Virus record (IMG/VR): IMGVR_UViG_2925891887_000001
Length of the DNA stretch: 64,000 nt
Reading direction: 5' to 3' (one strand)
Source: a virus
Taxonomy: Duplodnaviria; Heunggongvirae; Uroviricota; Caudoviricetes
In this document: positions 33,318 to 40,194 of the stretch, in pieces
Position numbering within the stretch: position 1 is the stretch's first letter
Layout: the number at the start of each line of letters is the position of its first letter
Made by a program: the position numbers and the translations under genes
The notes under the pieces: generated by a model
What the model was told of the DNA's origin: nothing
The model's database searches: none
What the model saw: only the letters and a program-made list of their open reading frames with translations

Positions 33318-33731
33318 ATGAGCAAAAAGAAGTTGATTTTAACAGGTGCTTTATTGTCGTTGTTTGCATTAGTTGGGTGTAAGCCTACAGACGAGAAGGC
33401 TATTACTCTGGGCCAACAGGCAATTGCGGATGATATGAAAGATCCCACGTCGGTGATGTTTAGGAAAGATAAGTTTGTCAGGACTGATCATGATGATGGG
33501 AGTGTGACAGGCTTTGTGTGTGGTGAATTAAACGCCAAAAATGGCTTTGGTGCATACGTGGGCTATCACTCATATGTTGTTGAACTCGAAATGAAGCCAA
33601 AGGGCATGTTTTCAAAAGGGGTGGTATACAAAATCCTATCGAAGTCGTTGGCACCTAATGATCCTCATGATTTACAGCGTTATAAGCAGGTCTACAGAAA
33701 GATGTGCAACAGTGAGGCTGTAGCTCATTAA
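33318..33731 (+). CDS. lipoprotein, function unknown
   Basis: Signal peptide with lipobox LVGC; AGGGA RBS. Confidence 0.55.
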   Translation: MSKKKLILTGALLSLFALVGCKPTDEKAITLGQQAIADDMKDPTSVMFRKDKFVRTDHDDGSVTGFVCGELNAKNGFGAYVGYHSYVVELEMKPKGMFSKGVVYKILSKSLAPNDPHDLQRYKQVYRKMCNSEAVAH

Positions 33732-33856
33732 AGGTGAATGCTGGGCTGAGGATATGCCCGGCATCTTAGTATAAAGAACTATTGCACCTAAAATGATAAG
33801 TAGATACATACTTAAGTTTTTGTAAGAATACTTTCATCCGTTAGCTAGGAGTTGGT

Positions 33857-34639
33857 ATGAAAGAAGAAATTAAGAGATTAGCCTGCAACATCATTGATAA
33901 AACTGGTTTAGAAATCAGCGAGAGCAATCGGCTAGACATCATTGAAAAAGCCGTCAATACGGCAATGGATCATATCGCCACTCGTTTGGTCGAGATCCCT
34001 CTACCGGGGCTACCTTATCTGAAGGTTAAGTTGTGCGTATGGGACGAACCTGCACATGCACGACGTTCTGCATTAGTTGTTTTTGTACGCAAAGAAAACT
34101 TACGAACTCTAAAAGTGCAGGTTGGGGCGTGGTTTGATGGCAGAGTCATCTATACAGATACCATTATCTGTCCTCCAGGTGACGAACATATTGAAGCCGT
34201 TATTCGAGAATCAATTCGAGCTATGCGTAGTTTAGCTTTGCTGGAAGACAAGCAAAACTTTGAAGATTACTTGCTGTCGGTAAAAGCTGAACCAACATTG
34301 TCTCTGAAAGCCGATTTCGTCACCCCGACAAATCTGTTGGAGGTTTTGATTAATAAAGGGGCTAATGATGCTGTAAACCTAATCAGGGAGAGCGAATATT
34401 CGACTCTTTGGGACATGTGCAAAAGCCAGTTGGATCTTGTGCATATCATTGTTGATGCGGGTAAGGCGTGTGATGGCGTAATGGCGGAATTTGCTGGGAA
34501 GATGGTCAGGATTGCTAACGAATTACCGATGATAGAGCAAGAGGCCAAATCATACGCCACCAATCATGTCACAGAGCTTCTTGCCCCCTATCGCTTAGAA
34601 AGCGATCAGCGCAAGATGATTAGCTGGGGAAGTTGGTAA
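33857..34639 (+). CDS. hypothetical protein
   Basis: 260-aa ORF with AGGAG RBS. Confidence 0.55.
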   Translation: MKEEIKRLACNIIDKTGLEISESNRLDIIEKAVNTAMDHIATRLVEIPLPGLPYLKVKLCVWDEPAHARRSALVVFVRKENLRTLKVQVGAWFDGRVIYTDTIICPPGDEHIEAVIRESIRAMRSLALLEDKQNFEDYLLSVKAEPTLSLKADFVTPTNLLEVLINKGANDAVNLIRESEYSTLWDMCKSQLDLVHIIVDAGKACDGVMAEFAGKMVRIANELPMIEQEAKSYATNHVTELLAPYRLESDQRKMISWGSW

Positions 34640-34706
34640 GCTCTCTGTGTGTCGTTTTTTACGCAAATAATGATAAGTAAGCACAAGATTATTTCTGGCG
34701 GTAATT

Positions 34707-35177
34707 GTGAAAGCTGATTTGTCAAAAGTCCCTTCTATTTCAGGAAATAACGGTTATTCACTTCGTTGTGAGGAAGTAAAGATAAACGGTGAGTCGGCAT
34801 ATTGCAGCTACTCCGTTTGCCAGCACACCATTCTTGCCTTCAAAGAAAACCGTCTTCCTCGAACGTCTTTCCAGTCGTGCGCAACCGCTATTAAAGCAGG
34901 CAAATGCAAGGCGTTAAAAATGATGGTTGAAGAGATTCGTAAAGGAGAATCTCTGTATTTCGAAGATATGACCGCACTCATTAAGGAGGTTGAAGAACGG
35001 AATAAACAAGCCAGAACTATAAAACGAAAACGTGACAGTGTAACGATTAATAGCATGGTTAAGAAGAGCGCCACATCACAAACAGCGATCACTGACGTGT
35101 ATGCGGCGTTGATTGAAGAAACAACAAAAGAAACACATGAGCAAATCGATCAACATATGGAGGCAAAACAACAATGA
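34707..35177 (+). CDS. hypothetical protein
   Basis: 156-aa ORF; start uncertain; stop overlaps ligase start. Confidence 0.45.
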   Translation: MKADLSKVPSISGNNGYSLRCEEVKINGESAYCSYSVCQHTILAFKENRLPRTSFQSCATAIKAGKCKALKMMVEEIRKGESLYFEDMTALIKEVEERNKQARTIKRKRDSVTINSMVKKSATSQTAITDVYAALIEETTKETHEQIDQHMEAKQQ

Positions 35178-36496
35178 AAAAGTTGATCGCACTTAAGCAT
35201 AAGCTGGACGAAATGAAAGCTATAGGAACCAATGCAAAAAAAGAGGCATTGGCCAACATGGATGACTTTGAACAAAGCATGGTTTCATTGATGCTCAACC
35301 CTTTCATCCGTTTTGGGGTAAAGAAATACAAAGTGGCAGAGCCGCTTAGTGAGTCCATCCCAAGTGACGTAAAAGCCATTGATGTACTGAATAAGCTGGC
35401 CTCTCGCGAGCTAACGGGGAACGCAGCAATAGCAGCTGTTGAGTCTATCGTGGCGTCAATGTGCGCCGATGGGCAGGACGTGTTCCGTCGTTTCCTCTTA
35501 AAAGACCCGAAAGCAGGTGTTGGGATTAGCCTATGCAACAAGGTTTTTGAAAATCCCATTCCGAAATTCGAGGTGCAGCTGGCGTCACCGTATAAAGAAA
35601 AAGGCGACAAATACCCCTTCAAGCCAAATCCTAAAGCAAAATGGCCGATGATTGGCAGTCTTAAGCTCGATGGTTTGCGAGTAATTTGCGAGGTTATTGT
35701 TGACGAGGAAGAGGTTAACTTCCTTTCTCGTACTGGTAATCCAATCACGTCTCTCGATCACCTAAAGCCAGCAATGCTCGAATTAGGCAAACTTTCAGGC
35801 CACAAACACATCTTCTTCGATGGTGAAGGAACAGCCGGTTCATTTAACCAGTCCGTATCTGCATTGCGCAAAAAGAACGTGCAGGCAATTGGCGCTATTT
35901 ATCATGTTTTCGACTTCTTCCTACCGGAATGGCGAGCACAGGCTAAATCCAAAGAGTATGCAAAGACAGGTATGAAGCTGAAAGAGCGCCTGGCTATTCT
36001 CGTGGCGTTGTTCAAAAACGATCGCAGTGAAGGCTACACACAAGACATTCACCTGCATCCGTTCTATATCATCCATAGCCACGAAGACTTCATCGAACGC
36101 TTCATGAAACGCCTGGACGATAATGAAGAAGGGGAGATGGGCAAAGATCCGAACTCTGTTTACGAGTTTAAACGTACCCGCAGCTGGTGGAAGTTAAAAG
36201 ACGAAGATTCAGAAGATGGTGAAATTATCGATTTTGAGCCGGGCGATCCGGACTCTGGTTTTGCCAACACGCTTGGAAAAATTGTTATTCGTCTTGAAAA
36301 CGGCGTCATCGTTCGTGCGAGCGGTATTAAGCATAAATATCTGGACGAGATCTGGAACAACAAAGAGAAGTACCGTGGTCGTATTGTTGAGGTTCATTGT
36401 CACGAGAAAACACCGGATGGCAGCTTACGCCACCCCCGACTGAAATGGCCGCGTTGCTTACGCGATACAGAAGATCGAATCGGAGATAAAGAATGA
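35174..36496 (+). CDS. ATP-dependent DNA ligase
   Basis: Adenylation motif I KxDG (SLKLDGLRV) and ligase-size ORF. Confidence 0.8.
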   Translation: MKKLIALKHKLDEMKAIGTNAKKEALANMDDFEQSMVSLMLNPFIRFGVKKYKVAEPLSESIPSDVKAIDVLNKLASRELTGNAAIAAVESIVASMCADGQDVFRRFLLKDPKAGVGISLCNKVFENPIPKFEVQLASPYKEKGDKYPFKPNPKAKWPMIGSLKLDGLRVICEVIVDEEEVNFLSRTGNPITSLDHLKPAMLELGKLSGHKHIFFDGEGTAGSFNQSVSALRKKNVQAIGAIYHVFDFFLPEWRAQAKSKEYAKTGMKLKERLAILVALFKNDRSEGYTQDIHLHPFYIIHSHEDFIERFMKRLDDNEEGEMGKDPNSVYEFKRTRSWWKLKDEDSEDGEIIDFEPGDPDSGFANTLGKIVIRLENGVIVRASGIKHKYLDEIWNNKEKYRGRIVEVHCHEKTPDGSLRHPRLKWPRCLRDTEDRIGDKE

Positions 36497-36672
36497 TGCT
36501 CGGCTGGATGATTGCATTTTTAGCAGTTGGTTTTTTCATAGGTATTGTGGTGATGTCCAGTTGCATCAATGACTACATTAAAAGCGGTGTTATAGAAAGA
36601 CGCGGTCGTATTTATCGCATTGTAGAAATAACCAACACCCTGAAGGAGATTAAGGATGATCGTATTAAGTAA
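36493..36672 (+). CDS. small membrane protein (59 aa)
   Basis: Not in the ORF track (below 60 aa); ATG overlaps ligase stop; one TM helix; paralogous to 36868..37020. Confidence 0.4.
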   Translation: MMLGWMIAFLAVGFFIGIVVMSSCINDYIKSGVIERRGRIYRIVEITNTLKEIKDDRIK

Positions 36673-36871
36673 ACGGGAGAAGGAAACGCTTCATGAAATC
36701 AGTAAGTGGCCGGAGTTCCCTGAGTACTGGAAGCCTAAAACGCGAGCTAAGTTAGAGCGTTTAGGGTTGGTTGCAAACGTTTCTGAAACGTGGTGTTCGG
36801 CCAACTACCAGTTAACTGATAAAGGGAAAGTATTGCTACAGCAATTAGTAGAATCAGGAGTGTTAAAATGA
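36656..36871 (+). CDS. hypothetical small protein
   Basis: 71-aa ORF with AAGGAG RBS. Confidence 0.5.
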   Translation: MIVLSKREKETLHEISKWPEFPEYWKPKTRAKLERLGLVANVSETWCSANYQLTDKGKVLLQQLVESGVLK

Positions 36872-37020
36872 TTCCATACATCTCATTAGCTTTTATGGGT
36901 GGCTTCCTTATCGGCTTCGGCATCTGTCGTGATTTAGTTAAGCAGGAACTTAAAACCAAAACACTGTGCATCGGAAAGCGTGTGTATCGGGTAGTTCATG
37001 AAACAAAGGTGAAAAAATGA
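36868..37020 (+). CDS. small membrane protein (50 aa), paralogue of 36493..36672
   Basis: ATG overlapping upstream stop; TM helix followed by a shared basic motif (RVYRVVHETK versus RIYRIVEITN). Confidence 0.4.
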   Translation: MIPYISLAFMGGFLIGFGICRDLVKQELKTKTLCIGKRVYRVVHETKVKK

Positions 37021-37307
37021 GCAATTTAACTTCTTGGGAATGGTGGTTGGCCACCTATTTCTTAGCGGCCGGAGTCGCATTCGCCTTTTACGTAGGTCAG
37101 TTAGTCGTAAAACTGTTGCTGATTAAATTTGCTAGTCATAAACGTATCGATGATGGTCTGTGGCGTCTTGGCGCCCTGGTGGAAACTCGCTACGGGCAAC
37201 TTAAGGAGAACGAAACCATTACTATCCAAGCGAAACGATTCACTGCCACCATTACAAGAACACCTAGTCGTAGAGTGGCCTTGATCAAAAAAGTCACAAC
37301 CGAATAA
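37017..37307 (+). CDS. small membrane protein
   Basis: 96-aa ORF, N-terminal TM helix, ATGA start/stop overlap. Confidence 0.5.
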   Translation: MSNLTSWEWWLATYFLAAGVAFAFYVGQLVVKLLLIKFASHKRIDDGLWRLGALVETRYGQLKENETITIQAKRFTATITRTPSRRVALIKKVTTE

Positions 37308-37316
37308 AAACATATT

Positions 37317-37338
37317 GATAAGTATTTACTTACTTATC
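37317..37338. promoter_or_regulatory. perfect inverted repeat GATAAGTA-N6-TACTTATC, member of the recurrent GTAAGTA motif family
   Basis: Read directly from the sequence; related palindromes recur in many intergenic regions. Confidence 0.5.
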
Positions 37339-38085
37339 TTTTGTGTATAAGATGACTTTGTTTTCGTTGAGACGCGACTGTTTGAACTTAAATACAAGTG
37401 CAAACGAAGAAGTCTATCTGGCAGTAGCCTAATAAGCCAAACACCAGCGAGGTCAGTTTCCAGCCTCGTTACCGAAATGGGACACACTGAGCGAGTGTGA
37501 TTGCAGAACGCAGGAGGGAACATTCATGTTCCCTCCGATGAAGTAACAGAATGGGCGGTTGGTATATTTTCAACTCCATATGACTCCCGGATTCTTAGCC
37601 ACTGACCGCCCATCCTGTTACGTCATTTTGTTCAATTATGTCGTTTATACTGGGTTAAAAAGCGGCGACGTAGCCCGGCTGGTATGGTTAGCCAGCACAC
37701 AACGTTGAGGCCATTACATTTTTATCAATTCTAAGGTTCTATTCACAGAGATACCGGCGAGCGTTGATATGTAACATGTTGGGCAAACATTCAATCGGAG
37801 TAGTGGCCTCAACGTTGTGAAGACGGGATTGTTGTGTAGGTTTAACCACTGTTGCCATTGGTGCCTGTTTTCACAACAAATGATTCCATACATCACATTG
37901 TATAAATTACAAAGTAGGTGCTGTCCTCAGAAACATCATCTACTTAAAGATTTTGCCTTCTACTATTGAGCGAAGTCGAAAGCGTCTGGCACTAACGAAA
38001 AGTGCAAGTAGCGGTGCGTTTCCTGGCAGAAACTAAACCGTCGCGATTGGCACTGTTGAGTAATAAATACTGGCAGTGCTGAATT

Positions 38086-38160
38086 GATGGTGTAGCTCAG
38101 CGGTAGAGCAGTTGGCTGTTAACCAACTGGTCGGTGGTTCGAATCCACCCACCATCGCCA
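38086..38160 (+). tRNA. tRNA-Asn (anticodon GTT)
   Basis: Cloverleaf read by eye: acceptor GATGGTG/CACCATC, anticodon loop CTGTTAA, T-loop GGTTCGAATCC, encoded CCA. Confidence 0.8.
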
Positions 38161-38165
38161 ATTTA

Positions 38166-38252
38166 GGGGAGTTAGTCCGTAGAGGTAGCGGTGTAGACTG
38201 TAAATCTACTGTCATGGCGACTCGGGTGGTTCGACTCCATCACTCCCCACCA
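38166..38252 (+). tRNA. tRNA-Tyr (anticodon GTA), long variable arm
   Basis: Acceptor GGGGAGT/ACTCCCC, anticodon loop CTGTAAA, T-loop GGTTCGACTCC, encoded CCA. Confidence 0.75.
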
Positions 38253-38256
38253 AATT

Positions 38257-38332
38257 GCCGGTTTAGCTCAGTTGGTAGAGCAGTCGCTTTGTAAGCGAAT
38301 GGCCAGCGGTTCAAGTCCGTTAACCGGCACCA
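38257..38332 (+). tRNA. tRNA-Thr (anticodon TGT)
   Basis: Acceptor GCCGGTT/AACCGGC, D-arm AGCTCAGTTGGTAGAGC, anticodon loop TTTGTAA, T-loop GGTTCAAGTCC, encoded CCA. Confidence 0.75.
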
Positions 38333-38652
38333 ACACAACAGGTAAGAGCATTGGGCGAATCGGCGATACTGACCCACAAGGCCGTAAATCGATAGAGTCA
38401 GACCAGTGCTCTTACCGTTGTGAGGAAGTGCAGCTCTTTGAAGCAACCAGAAGATAAGCATCTGGCTTCACAACACAACGATAATATCATTACGGTTAAT
38501 CGTCGTTCATGTGCACAATGACTGGTCGAAAGGTAGTGATCTTACCGTTGTGATGAATGCACAGGCTGATGTGCCGCAACTACAGTAGTGCGCGCTTTGC
38601 GGGGCTTGCTACAACCCTGTGTCGGAGTTCAGCACCGACCATCACAATAGCT

Positions 38653-38739
38653 GGAGAGTAGGGAGCATGGTGCTCAAGCGGTCTTGAAAACCGTCCCATT
38701 GTGCAAACGATGATGGTTCGATTCCATTACTCTCCGCCA
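38653..38739 (+). tRNA. tRNA-Ser (anticodon TGA), long variable arm
   Basis: Acceptor GGAGAGT/ACTCTCC, anticodon loop CTTGAAA, T-loop GGTTCGATTCC, encoded CCA. Confidence 0.7.
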
Positions 38740-38931: not shown

Positions 38932-40194
38932 TTACTTTGCATAGTCGCCCAATTTTAATATTTCGCGCTTATATTCATTAACCATGCTACTGGATTCAGT
39001 ATAAATTCGATTTAAAAGATTATCGTTATCTTTATTTTCATTTATCTTAATTAGTGCTAATTTATATTCATAGTCATCAAATGCCACAATTAAATGGTGG
39101 CCTGGGATTATATCTTCGTCACTCTTAAAGTATATATCTTCAAGTATGTAATCTAGTTGATTAGATTTTCTTTTCTCGATGTAATCTTCAGCCATAGCTA
39201 TTACATCATTCCTGTCATTTAACCTGTTTTTTTCGGAAGGCACATCTTCGTAATGTTGCACGATTGAACAACCAATAAGGCGTGGGATGTAAACGTCAAA
39301 ATGAGTAACTCTATCATTCGCGGTTTTAAGTAGTTCCTCAAAGTAGTTTCTTACATGTAAAGGCAACTTCTCAAAGTAATCATTAATTATAGGAGAACAA
39401 GGAGTTTTATAATTCATAAGAACCGACGGTACGAGCTTTGGGTGTCGAAACATCCAGTCCCTTTTAACGTCCGATGGAACATAATAACTTTTAATGATAT
39501 TATCAAAATAATTTATCATTCGAGATTTGAATATTTTGTTGAATCTAAGGTTTATGAATGTATCCAGATAAGGCATATTTGAATAAGCATCATCAAAAAA
39601 TATTTCATCATTGAAAAAATCATATTTATTCAATAAACAACACAGTTTTTCCGAATTAATATGTTCACAATAATCGATTTTTAATCCAAAGATAGCAATG
39701 ATCAACTTCATCTGAGGTGGGATTTTAAAAATTAATTGTGACACATACGCTCTTTTTTCCTTGAGACATTCCCCATCAATATAAAATGAACCATCCACAT
39801 ACTCAAATATATTAATAATATGCTTCACATACTGTATTACCTCATGCTGTCTTACCAATGGATAATATAGTCTATGTAACTCATCGCTGTTTAAATTAAT
39901 TTTGTGTTTATCGATAATTTGTTTTGCAAGAAGACATAACTCATCATGTTGATTTAATAAGGAATCAAACCATTGTTTAAATGCACTCTTTCGCATTTCG
40001 AACAATGATTCAGTTGTTAATTGAAGGGCTGAAAAAGCTGCTTTTGCACTTTTTCTCGCTTCGTAGGCATTCCATGCTGTTGCTATAAAAGCAAATGCTG
40101 TAGCCAATGTTCCAACAGTTTGACCATTTAAAACAACCCAATCCCAAAAAATGACGGTGAGCAGTAGTATAATAATGAAAATTAAAAAAGGCAT
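38932..40194 (-). CDS. AT-rich membrane-anchored protein of unknown function (cargo gene)
   Basis: 420-aa ORF, two N-terminal hydrophobic helices, strongly AT-rich, adjacent to tRNAs and an integrase. Confidence 0.55.
   Translation of the reverse strand: MPFLIFIIILLLTVIFWDWVVLNGQTVGTLATAFAFIATAWNAYEARKSAKAAFSALQLTTESLFEMRKSAFKQWFDSLLNQHDELCLLAKQIIDKHKINLNSDELHRLYYPLVRQHEVIQYVKHIINIFEYVDGSFYIDGECLKEKRAYVSQLIFKIPPQMKLIIAIFGLKIDYCEHINSEKLCCLLNKYDFFNDEIFFDDAYSNMPYLDTFINLRFNKIFKSRMINYFDNIIKSYYVPSDVKRDWMFRHPKLVPSVLMNYKTPCSPIINDYFEKLPLHVRNYFEELLKTANDRVTHFDVYIPRLIGCSIVQHYEDVPSEKNRLNDRNDVIAMAEDYIEKRKSNQLDYILEDIYFKSDEDIIPGHHLIVAFDDYEYKLALIKINENKDNDNLLNRIYTESSSMVNEYKREILKLGDYAK

Follow-up and report, generated by a model that had tools for sequence, protein, structure and literature searches.

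Several small membrane proteins of phages and bacteria have been described. Proteins p16.7 and p1 of Bacillus phage phi29 are membrane-anchored organisers of phage DNA replication; Imm and Sp of phage T4, gp15 of HK97 and SieA of P22 are small inner-membrane proteins of superinfection exclusion; and AcrZ, MgrB and SafA are small single-pass bacterial regulators, encoded on the chromosome, which act on host complexes by helix–helix packing. Here, we analysed a run of four small open reading frames (ORF1–ORF4) directly downstream of an ATP-dependent DNA ligase gene in the IMG/VR virus record IMGVR_UViG_2925891887_000001 (Caudoviricetes; 64,000 nucleotides, hereafter the window). ORF1 and ORF3 encode paralogous mini-proteins, each with one predicted membrane helix, and comparison with related loci points to a conserved core in which a mini-protein is paired with ORF4, likewise a predicted membrane protein.

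The window was assigned to the SSU5/pHCM2/pMT1-type phage-plasmids from its gene order and DNA identity. Positions 35100–37900 are 99.1% identical to the Escherichia coli phage Cyrano and 78.8% identical to SSU5, and in both phages a helicase, a primase, two hypothetical genes, the ATP-dependent ligase, the small genes and tRNA genes follow one another, a synteny that places the block in the replication module of this class of elements (~100–115 kb). A sensitive DNA search of a plasmid collection returned the four-gene block in 789 records from Klebsiella, Escherichia, Enterobacter, Salmonella, Yersinia (pMT1), Citrobacter and other hosts, almost all of them non-mobilisable and, in those examined, ~100–140 kb in size. 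In SSU5, pMT1, pHCM2-type plasmids and plasmids of Klebsiella/Enterobacter, the ligase is followed by these four genes in the same order. Among the elements of the SSU5 type are the Yersinia pestis plasmid pMT1, the Salmonella Typhi plasmid pHCM2 and elements common in Klebsiella and E. coli that carry resistance; a rough gauge of their frequency is provided by the intergenic region adjoining the block, which was found in 244 of 5426 complete E. coli genomes.

The original prediction of consecutive ORFs of 59, 71, 50 and 96 amino acids (aa) at positions 36493–37307 was exact in coordinates and lengths (Table 1). Its description of the junctions as ATGA start/stop overlaps applies to ligase/ORF1, ORF2/ORF3 and ORF3/ORF4; ORF1 and ORF2 instead overlap by 17 nt, with the ATG of ORF2 at 36656 and the TAA of ORF1 at 36670–36672. 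Each of the four starts is preceded, 6–8 nt upstream, by a GGAG, AGGAG or AGGTG Shine–Dalgarno (SD) box. Conservation was assessed on 93 related loci gathered from phage, plasmid, viral-contig and genome collections; the viral collection gave 80 loci. The ORF3/ORF4 junction is ATGA in 83 of 83 cases and the 17-nt ORF1/ORF2 overlap recurs in 77 of 78, while the ligase/ORF1 and ORF2/ORF3 junctions are chiefly of the ATGA or TGATG form, apart from a few that read GTGA or TAATG or are outliers. SD boxes and conserved overlaps thus support the proposed translational coupling, and ribosomes probably pass from gene to gene along the block. No promoter-like site was found on the + strand between 33500 and 38200, which fits a single transcript running on from the replication genes. 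A terminator-like site inside ORF4 (37042–37055) has a 5-bp stem and was treated as a chance occurrence, the region containing seven such sites in total against a shuffle expectation of 4.6.

Table 1. Features of the ligase–ORF4 segment, with positions in the window and the supporting evidence. dN/dS, pooled Nei–Gojobori ratio of nonsynonymous to synonymous divergence; E, expect value.
Feature	Position	Strand	Evidence or content
ATP-dependent DNA ligase, 440 aa	35174–36496	+	Annotation of Cyrano and SSU5; PF01068 match on homologues; dN/dS 0.051
Direct repeat, left copy, 16 bp, GGAGATAAAGAATGAT	36482–36497	+	Holds the ORF1 SD box and start and the ligase stop
ORF1, 59 aa, predicted mini membrane protein	36493–36672	+	phrog_4381, E 1.1e-39; dN/dS 0.136; hydropathy and charge bias
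Direct repeat, right copy, 16 bp, GGAGATTAAGGATGAT	36645–36660	+	Holds the ORF2 SD box and start, within the ORF1 tail (KEIKDD)
ORF2, 71 aa, predicted soluble protein	36656–36871	+	phrog_4054, E 1.7e-45; dN/dS 0.091
ORF3, 50 aa, predicted mini membrane protein	36868–37020	+	phrog_6302, E 1.4e-36; dN/dS 0.205
ORF4, 96 aa, predicted single-pass membrane protein	37017–37307	+	phrog_4507, E 3.2e-58; dN/dS 0.130

The four ORFs are protein-coding genes under purifying selection and evolve faster than the ligase, as seen from the pooled dN/dS ratios (Table 1), which were obtained at 0.44–0.70 synonymous differences per site (pS). That they are functionless frames kept open by DNA or RNA constraints is scarcely credible. 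The frames are very short, ORF1 is absent from the annotation of Cyrano, and the invariant ORF1 residues E52, D55 and D56 overlie the SD box and ATG of ORF2, so that their invariance may reflect initiation signals of ORF2 rather than protein function of ORF1. Against such an explanation stand dN/dS values of 0.09–0.20 at this level of synonymous divergence, frames that are intact in nearly all copies across 60–100% identity, and protein motifs that persist in relatives in which the DNA no longer aligns.

The original prediction also held that two of these genes had been missed by the ORF track. This does not extend to public annotation: SSU5, pMT1 and many plasmids processed with the Prokaryotic Genome Annotation Pipeline (PGAP) carry all four (SSU5_045–048 in SSU5; WP_002224360, WP_002224361, WP_002225462 and WP_002224363 in pMT1; counterparts in pHCM2-type plasmids). 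In Cyrano, ORF1 alone is omitted and ORF2 is named 'putative transcriptional regulator'. The PHROG matches of Table 1 cover the whole protein and the whole profile and are all labelled 'unknown function'. Hundreds of ORF4 homologues in GenBank and RefSeq are named 'C-type natriuretic protein' (e.g. SSU5_048 and WP_073311629.1), apparently a propagated misnomer, since neither Pfam nor NCBIfam gave a match at E values up to 1. The text of a paper on the Klebsiella element p2 (PMC8969562) makes no mention of ligase, membrane protein, superinfection, exclusion or transcriptome. The four genes are therefore ordinary, already-catalogued hypothetical phage genes, and the novelty lies in demonstrating that two of them are paralogous, in tracing how the module evolved and in placing its expression in context.

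Both mini-proteins have one strongly hydrophobic segment, as originally noticed, with a mean Kyte–Doolittle value over the best 19-aa window of 2.55 in ORF1 and 1.84 in ORF3. The basic motifs that follow, RIYRIVEITN and RVYRVVHETK, do align without gaps, and the suspected paralogy was borne out by BLASTP (E 5e-5) and by profile–profile comparison with hhalign (probability 81%, E 1.3e-5). When the family profile of each mini-protein was run against the 1118 six-frame segments of the window, the other was the best non-self match (E 0.014 and 0.0048). Two intermediates, P0072 and P0077, connect the two at E values of ~1e-8 or better; P0077 joins an ORF3-like N-terminal MIPYI to an ORF1-like C-terminal RRRVYRVVEIT. 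In the gapless joint alignment, G13 and G17 (a GxxxG motif in the helix) and R39, Y41, R42 and T47 (hairpin motif) are invariant. The assignment of ORF1 and ORF3 to one paralogous family is thus sound at the sequence level, although PHROGs lists them as separate families. As judged from database matches, this family is very narrow: when 1.84 billion representative proteins were searched exhaustively with its profile, 24 matches were obtained (P0072 and P0077 among them), nearly all of them short proteins of the same kind except for an unrelated 238-aa protein (P0086), and the genomic contexts examined were SSU5-like phage-plasmids. Homologues of ORF1 fall into 40 clusters, all from Enterobacterales, and a scan of species-representative genomes with the ORF2 profile returned two Kluyvera contigs only.

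In ORF1, an MLGW tip is followed by the predicted helix with its GxxxG motif (G13, G17) and then by a putative basic hairpin, RRGRIYRIVEIT; ORF3 has an MIPY tip, a helix with GxxxG at G12 and G16, and the invariant motif GKRVYRVVHET. ORF4, whose N-terminal membrane helix went unnoticed in the original prediction, would be a third single-pass protein. Its helix bears a conserved face of small residues (A18, G19, A23, G27) and is followed by an invariant juxtamembrane KRIDDGLWRLG, a predicted cytoplasmic helix and the hairpin TITIQAKRFTATITR; an AlphaFold2 model of modest confidence (mean predicted local distance difference test score, pLDDT, 64.7) places a helix at residues 6–61 and strands at 67–71 and 76–80. 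No lysine or arginine precedes the predicted membrane helix in ORF1, ORF3 or ORF4, whereas 9–13 follow it (9–10 in the mini-proteins), and ORF3 and ORF4 each have a net charge of +7. By the positive-inside rule, the mini-proteins are therefore predicted to span the membrane once with the N-terminus out and the C-terminus in, leaving a tiny periplasmic tip of 2–6 residues, with the invariant part residing in the basic cytoplasmic hairpin. ORF4 was considered as a third member of the mini-protein family and rejected (hhalign probability 1.8%), the likeness being limited to the architecture of membrane helix plus hairpin.

ORF2 has no hydrophobic segment and may be a small winged-helix protein, as suggested by a series of sub-threshold matches: seven of ten family members match HTH_45 (best E 0.0043, with a bit score below the cut-off of 25.5), and further matches were obtained to the Csa3 C-terminal wHTH (E 0.0015), SSO5209 (E 0.013) and the wing region of PDB entry 2f2e. 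A single-sequence AlphaFold2 model was unreliable (pLDDT 59.5), with no wing visible.

Among the 93 loci, 68 have the ligase and all four ORFs, 13 lack exactly ORF1, and nine lack ORF4 and have a truncated or fused ORF3. ORF3 and ORF4 are both intact in 81 loci and both lost in eight, with four discordant cases. Loss of ORF1, found in some E. coli lineages, is a clean 163-bp deletion between the two 16-bp direct repeats (Table 1). Two divergent SSU5-like loci (L094 and L221) have the ligase, a single mini-protein and an ORF4-like protein of 84 or 96 aa, all overlapping; these proteins have an N-terminal helix and a terminal hairpin as in ORF4, and the ORF4 family aligned with the 84-aa protein of L094 at an hhalign probability of 81% (E 1.2e-5). 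Locus L219 has two tandem mini-proteins joined by ATGA and then an ORF4-like protein of 81 aa, without ORF2, and a Klebsiella quasipneumoniae plasmid (L009) has divergent versions at all four positions. The ligase is deleted, with ORF3 and ORF4 retained, in L010 (NZ_CP138554.1) and L220 (GCA_045138415.1, contig DBCAWU010000012.1); at positions 1803–2051 of L010, an 82-aa product is encoded by an in-frame fusion, left by a deletion, of the first ~70 ligase codons with the final ~12 of ORF2. Such ligase loss in Klebsiella-type relatives argues that the phage ligase is dispensable for plasmid maintenance. The layouts of the divergent relatives, along with the co-retention of ORF3 and ORF4, identify a mini-protein plus ORF4 as the conserved core; on the same comparative grounds, ORF1 is a dispensable tandem duplicate and ORF2 an insertion between the duplicates. 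A role of ORF1 as an obligate anchor for ORF2 was ruled out, because 13 loci keep ORF2 without ORF1 and L219 has two mini-proteins without ORF2.

Expression was assessed from published RNA sequencing of E. coli LF82 carrying Cyrano, in which the figures cover ORF2–ORF4 only, ORF1 not being annotated. After overnight growth in LB medium, the ligase and CYRAN_37–39 (ORF2–ORF4) were at the floor, with log2(fpkm+5) values of 2.3–3.0, equivalent to ~0–3 fragments per kilobase per million mapped reads (fpkm); in other conditions they rose modestly, up to ~5–6 log2(fpkm+5) in some (PMC9928086, S1 Table). None of these genes is on the list of Cyrano morons (PMC9928086). ORF2–ORF4 are thus essentially silent in the Cyrano lysogen, which argues against exclusion expressed from the prophage and for co-regulation with the lytic or replication genes.

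These data bear directly on superinfection exclusion, one of the two roles for which the small membrane proteins had originally been put forward as candidates. Here, the mini-proteins, with or without ORF4, would block entry of a second phage's DNA, maybe by occupying the host injection channel in the way of early T4 proteins in lytic growth. Small predicted inner-membrane proteins in a temperate phage, duplicated and fast-evolving membrane helices beside an invariant motif, a natural presence/absence polymorphism typical of accessory functions, and a nearby variable hotspot that bears AbiH in a Klebsiella relative would all suit such a function. However, besides the silence in the lysogen and the absence from the moron list, the genes are located in a replication operon rather than beside repressor or tail genes, and no match was obtained to exclusion or defence models (PADLOC on ORF1, ORF3 and ORF4; Pfam). 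Moreover, with 2–6 residues predicted beyond the membrane and the conserved part in the cytoplasm, action on an incoming phage would need a site within the membrane or in the cytoplasm. We consider immunity or exclusion unlikely overall, and its classical, prophage-expressed version is disfavoured. The block was likewise not assigned to any known anti-phage defence or exclusion system, in view of the negative PADLOC results for these three ORFs and the ~0–3 fpkm of ORF2–ORF4.

The other role originally suggested, host takeover, is in its broad sense of a function in lytic development compatible with all the observations. In a specific version, the GxxxG helix would dock on a host membrane protein (such as FtsH, a transporter or part of the division machinery), whose cytoplasmic face would then be blocked by the basic hairpin. 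Size and architecture resemble those of bacterial and phage small-protein regulators of membrane proteins, neither the GxxxG motif nor the cytoplasmic hairpin varies, and expression is confined to outside lysogeny. Yet strict pairing with ORF4 points less to a lone inhibitor than to a phage complex that is complete in itself, searches of Pfam, PHROG and NCBIfam revealed no homology to known inhibitors, and the spread of the family over Escherichia, Salmonella, Klebsiella, Yersinia and Enterobacter would demand a well-conserved target. This version is hence rather improbable in our view.

The helix faces also bear on lysis timing or membrane permeabilisation, in which the helices would oligomerise into pores or modulate the holin, in the manner of a holin, antiholin or toxin. 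All three membrane helices have small-xxx-small faces, ORF4 gave a weak match to a holin PHROG (phrog_2359, E 0.063), and the sizes are like those of type I toxins. Nevertheless, the canonical holin–endolysin–Rz/Rz1 cassette (CYRAN_22–25) is found ~9 kb upstream of the block, the phrog_2359 match is not significant, and neither a Hok/Gef nor a holin family of Pfam matched at E values up to 1; translation coupled to the ligase, without an own promoter or antisense RNA, is unlike a toxin–antitoxin locus. A lysis-timing or pore-forming function is accordingly very doubtful. Membership of the holins or antiholins was rejected, phrog_2359 being the sole match and the lysis cassette lying elsewhere, as was membership of Hok/Gef, given the Pfam result, the absence of a + strand promoter-like site over 33500–38200 and the starts that overlap upstream stops.

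We tentatively propose instead that a complex of a mini-protein and ORF4 tethers the replicating DNA, or else proteins of its replication, to the inner membrane, a role that we regard as possible and that is suggested by the operon position and the basic cytoplasmic hairpins. ORF1–ORF4 form the 3' end of the helicase–primase–ligase operon and are probably translated gene to gene. In the proposed scheme, the mini-protein and ORF4 would pack via the small-residue faces of their helices and pair their hairpins, both the complex and its target being inferred, and the resulting assembly would be a membrane-anchored, strongly basic platform on the cytoplasmic side. This platform would be made only while the replication or lytic operon is on, and its likeliest job would be the membrane retention of phage DNA in replication or of the replication proteins.

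Several points weigh against retention at the membrane. ORF1 has been lost naturally from 13 of 93 loci and ORF3/ORF4 from ~9 of 93, which indicates that the element can be maintained without either. The mini-protein–ORF4 pair survives loss of the ligase, so that the link with replication comes down to operon position; basic juxtamembrane tails can also merely bind acidic lipids; and sequence searches of Pfam, NCBIfam, PADLOC and the PDB returned no characterised relative of the mini-proteins or of ORF4. The structural models of ORF4 and ORF2 are, as given above, of low confidence. A more elaborate form of the proposal, which we consider quite unlikely, would combine the mini-protein/ORF4 pair with the duplicate anchor ORF1 and the inserted winged-helix ORF2 into a previously unrecognised membrane-tethering device of Gram-negative phage-plasmids, in which the hairpin of the 50-aa anchor would complete a β-sheet shared with ORF4 and the basic platform would recruit the replicating genome or the replisome to the inner membrane, as a functional analogue of phi29 p16.7/p1 made of micro-proteins. 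In any event, a conserved membrane micro-protein module in a replication operon offers a concrete and inexpensive route to the organisation of lytic replication or to envelope manipulation, for which the natural variants without ORF1 (e.g. NZ_CP075058.1) or without ORF3/ORF4 (e.g. CP128711.1) serve as ready-made mutants.

Directly past the ORF4 stop, an unannotated, structured non-coding RNA of ~370 nt was observed at ~37346–37717 on the + strand, with a possible extension to ~37819. It has its own conserved promoter-like element at 37327–37353 (TTTACT...TATAAGAT) and is more conserved than the neighbouring genes. At 37411–37446, it contains the frame GCA AAC GAA GAA GTC TAT CTG GCA GTA GCC TAA TAA, which would be read as ANEEVYLAVA and two stops. 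The tag of the E. coli transfer-messenger RNA (tmRNA) is ANDENYALAA, also with two stops, and the likeness between the two peptides is close enough for the RNA to be called tmRNA-like on sequence grounds. Tag variants differ by clade (ANEDTYLAVA, ANDNQYLAVA, ANEDAYLAVA, ANEEMYLAVA, ANDTQYLAVA), and the changes resemble those of a translated tag, those in the Tyr and Ala codons being synonymous; owing to indels of 1–2 nt upstream, the frame has no conserved start codon. The consensus structure comprises 91 pairs (99.2% paired), with nine compensatory pairs against 3.6 ± 1.3 in shuffled alignments (none of 500 reached nine) and 0–4 in slid controls; covariation from one phage type to another is also seen in the helix that follows the tag (GCGAGG/CCUCGU, GUGAGG/CCUCAU, GCAAGG/CCUUGU, GCAGGG/CCCUGU).

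ARAGORN called no tmRNA at default or relaxed settings, and its loosest threshold gave only spurious minus-strand calls with unrelated tags; tmRNA-family matches in Rfam were sub-threshold only, and RefSeq has no annotation for the region in any of the records listed from the 244 E. coli genomes carrying it. A scan for the tag pattern found at least 120 IMG/VR contigs of three kinds, namely SSU5-like elements, lambdoid phages of ~47 kb and a third group of 80–110 kb. In the lambdoid version, located between the antiterminator Q and the holin, a canonical T-loop is retained. An acceptor stem with G3:U70 and a conserved CCA were looked for in the SSU5-type RNA and not found, so this may be a tmRNA-derived RNA whose tRNA-like domain has been lost or remodelled. 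In an exhaustive survey of 2014, mycobacteriophages and Bacillus phage G were the only phages reported with ssrA (PMC4131195), and a literature search with tmRNA terms found no link of tmRNA to SSU5-type phage-plasmids. This RNA is a more unusual object than the four-gene block and merits its own evaluation.

At the 3' end of the RNA, 32 nt (37686–37717) are 100% identical to a sequence annotated as clustered regularly interspaced short palindromic repeats (CRISPR) on the chromosome of an E. coli isolated from sediment (NZ_LR778147.1, 1705873–1705904), apparently a spacer directed at a phage-plasmid of the SSU5 type. The same end has a perfect inverted repeat of 15–17 bp (37696–37712/37805–37819; CACAACGTTGAGGCC/GGCCTCAACGTTGTG) with ~92 nt between the arms. 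Its first arm shares CGTTGAG with the 5' end of the RNA (~37365–37371), so that alternative pairings are possible, and its second arm is absent from some relatives (L007, L074). Judged by its sequence, the repeat may mark a site of processing or take the place of a terminator.

Further downstream, four tRNA genes (Asn-GTT, Tyr-GTA, Thr-TGT, Ser-TGA) are found at 38086–38739. Cyrano has three, without Tyr, and SSU5 has one annotated (Asn) in the stretch examined; as the sets differ even from the 99%-identical Cyrano, tRNA turnover is rapid. Past the tRNAs lies a variable spot, occupied in the window by an AT-rich ORF of 420 aa (38932–40194, minus strand) with an N-terminal hydrophobic segment and no match in Pfam or PADLOC searches. 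Cyrano carries different genes there, SSU5 has genes annotated as porphyrin biosynthesis, pMT1 has caf1R, and in a Klebsiella relative the spot is taken by a gene for AbiH (abortive infection). The 420-aa ORF is a candidate for accessory or defence cargo.

Turning to the described systems, the proposed complex would resemble phi29 p16.7 and p1 in being built of small proteins that are encoded with replication genes and consist of a membrane anchor at the N-terminus and a part in the cytoplasm, p16.7 and p1 being early proteins. No sequence similarity to these proteins was found, nor a Pfam match of any kind at E values up to 1. Further, p16.7 has a helical, dimeric DNA-binding domain and functions in a Gram-positive host, whereas here a basic hairpin of 15–20 aa is combined with a separate partner protein. 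With T4 Imm and Sp, HK97 gp15 and P22 SieA, the proteins of the block share small size, phage origin and a predicted inner-membrane location, and the T4 pair is made early in lytic growth; however, searches of Pfam, PHROG and PADLOC revealed no homology to any of these. In addition, exclusion proteins of the prophage type are expressed in lysogens, whereas ORF2–ORF4 are silent in that of Cyrano, and the functional part of Sp is periplasmic, whereas ORF1, ORF3 and ORF4 are predicted to leave almost nothing outside the cytoplasm. Type I toxins such as Hok/Gef likewise have ~50 aa, one membrane helix and a charged tail, but they differ from the mini-proteins in the opposite predicted orientation and in the want of a Pfam match, as well as in the own promoter and antisense RNA, which the mini-proteins do not have; the latter are translated by coupling in a replication operon and are strictly paired with ORF4. 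Finally, AcrZ, MgrB and SafA are unrelated in sequence and compare with the mini-proteins in size, in the single helix and in having a larger membrane partner, except that the obvious partner here, ORF4, is encoded by the phage itself.

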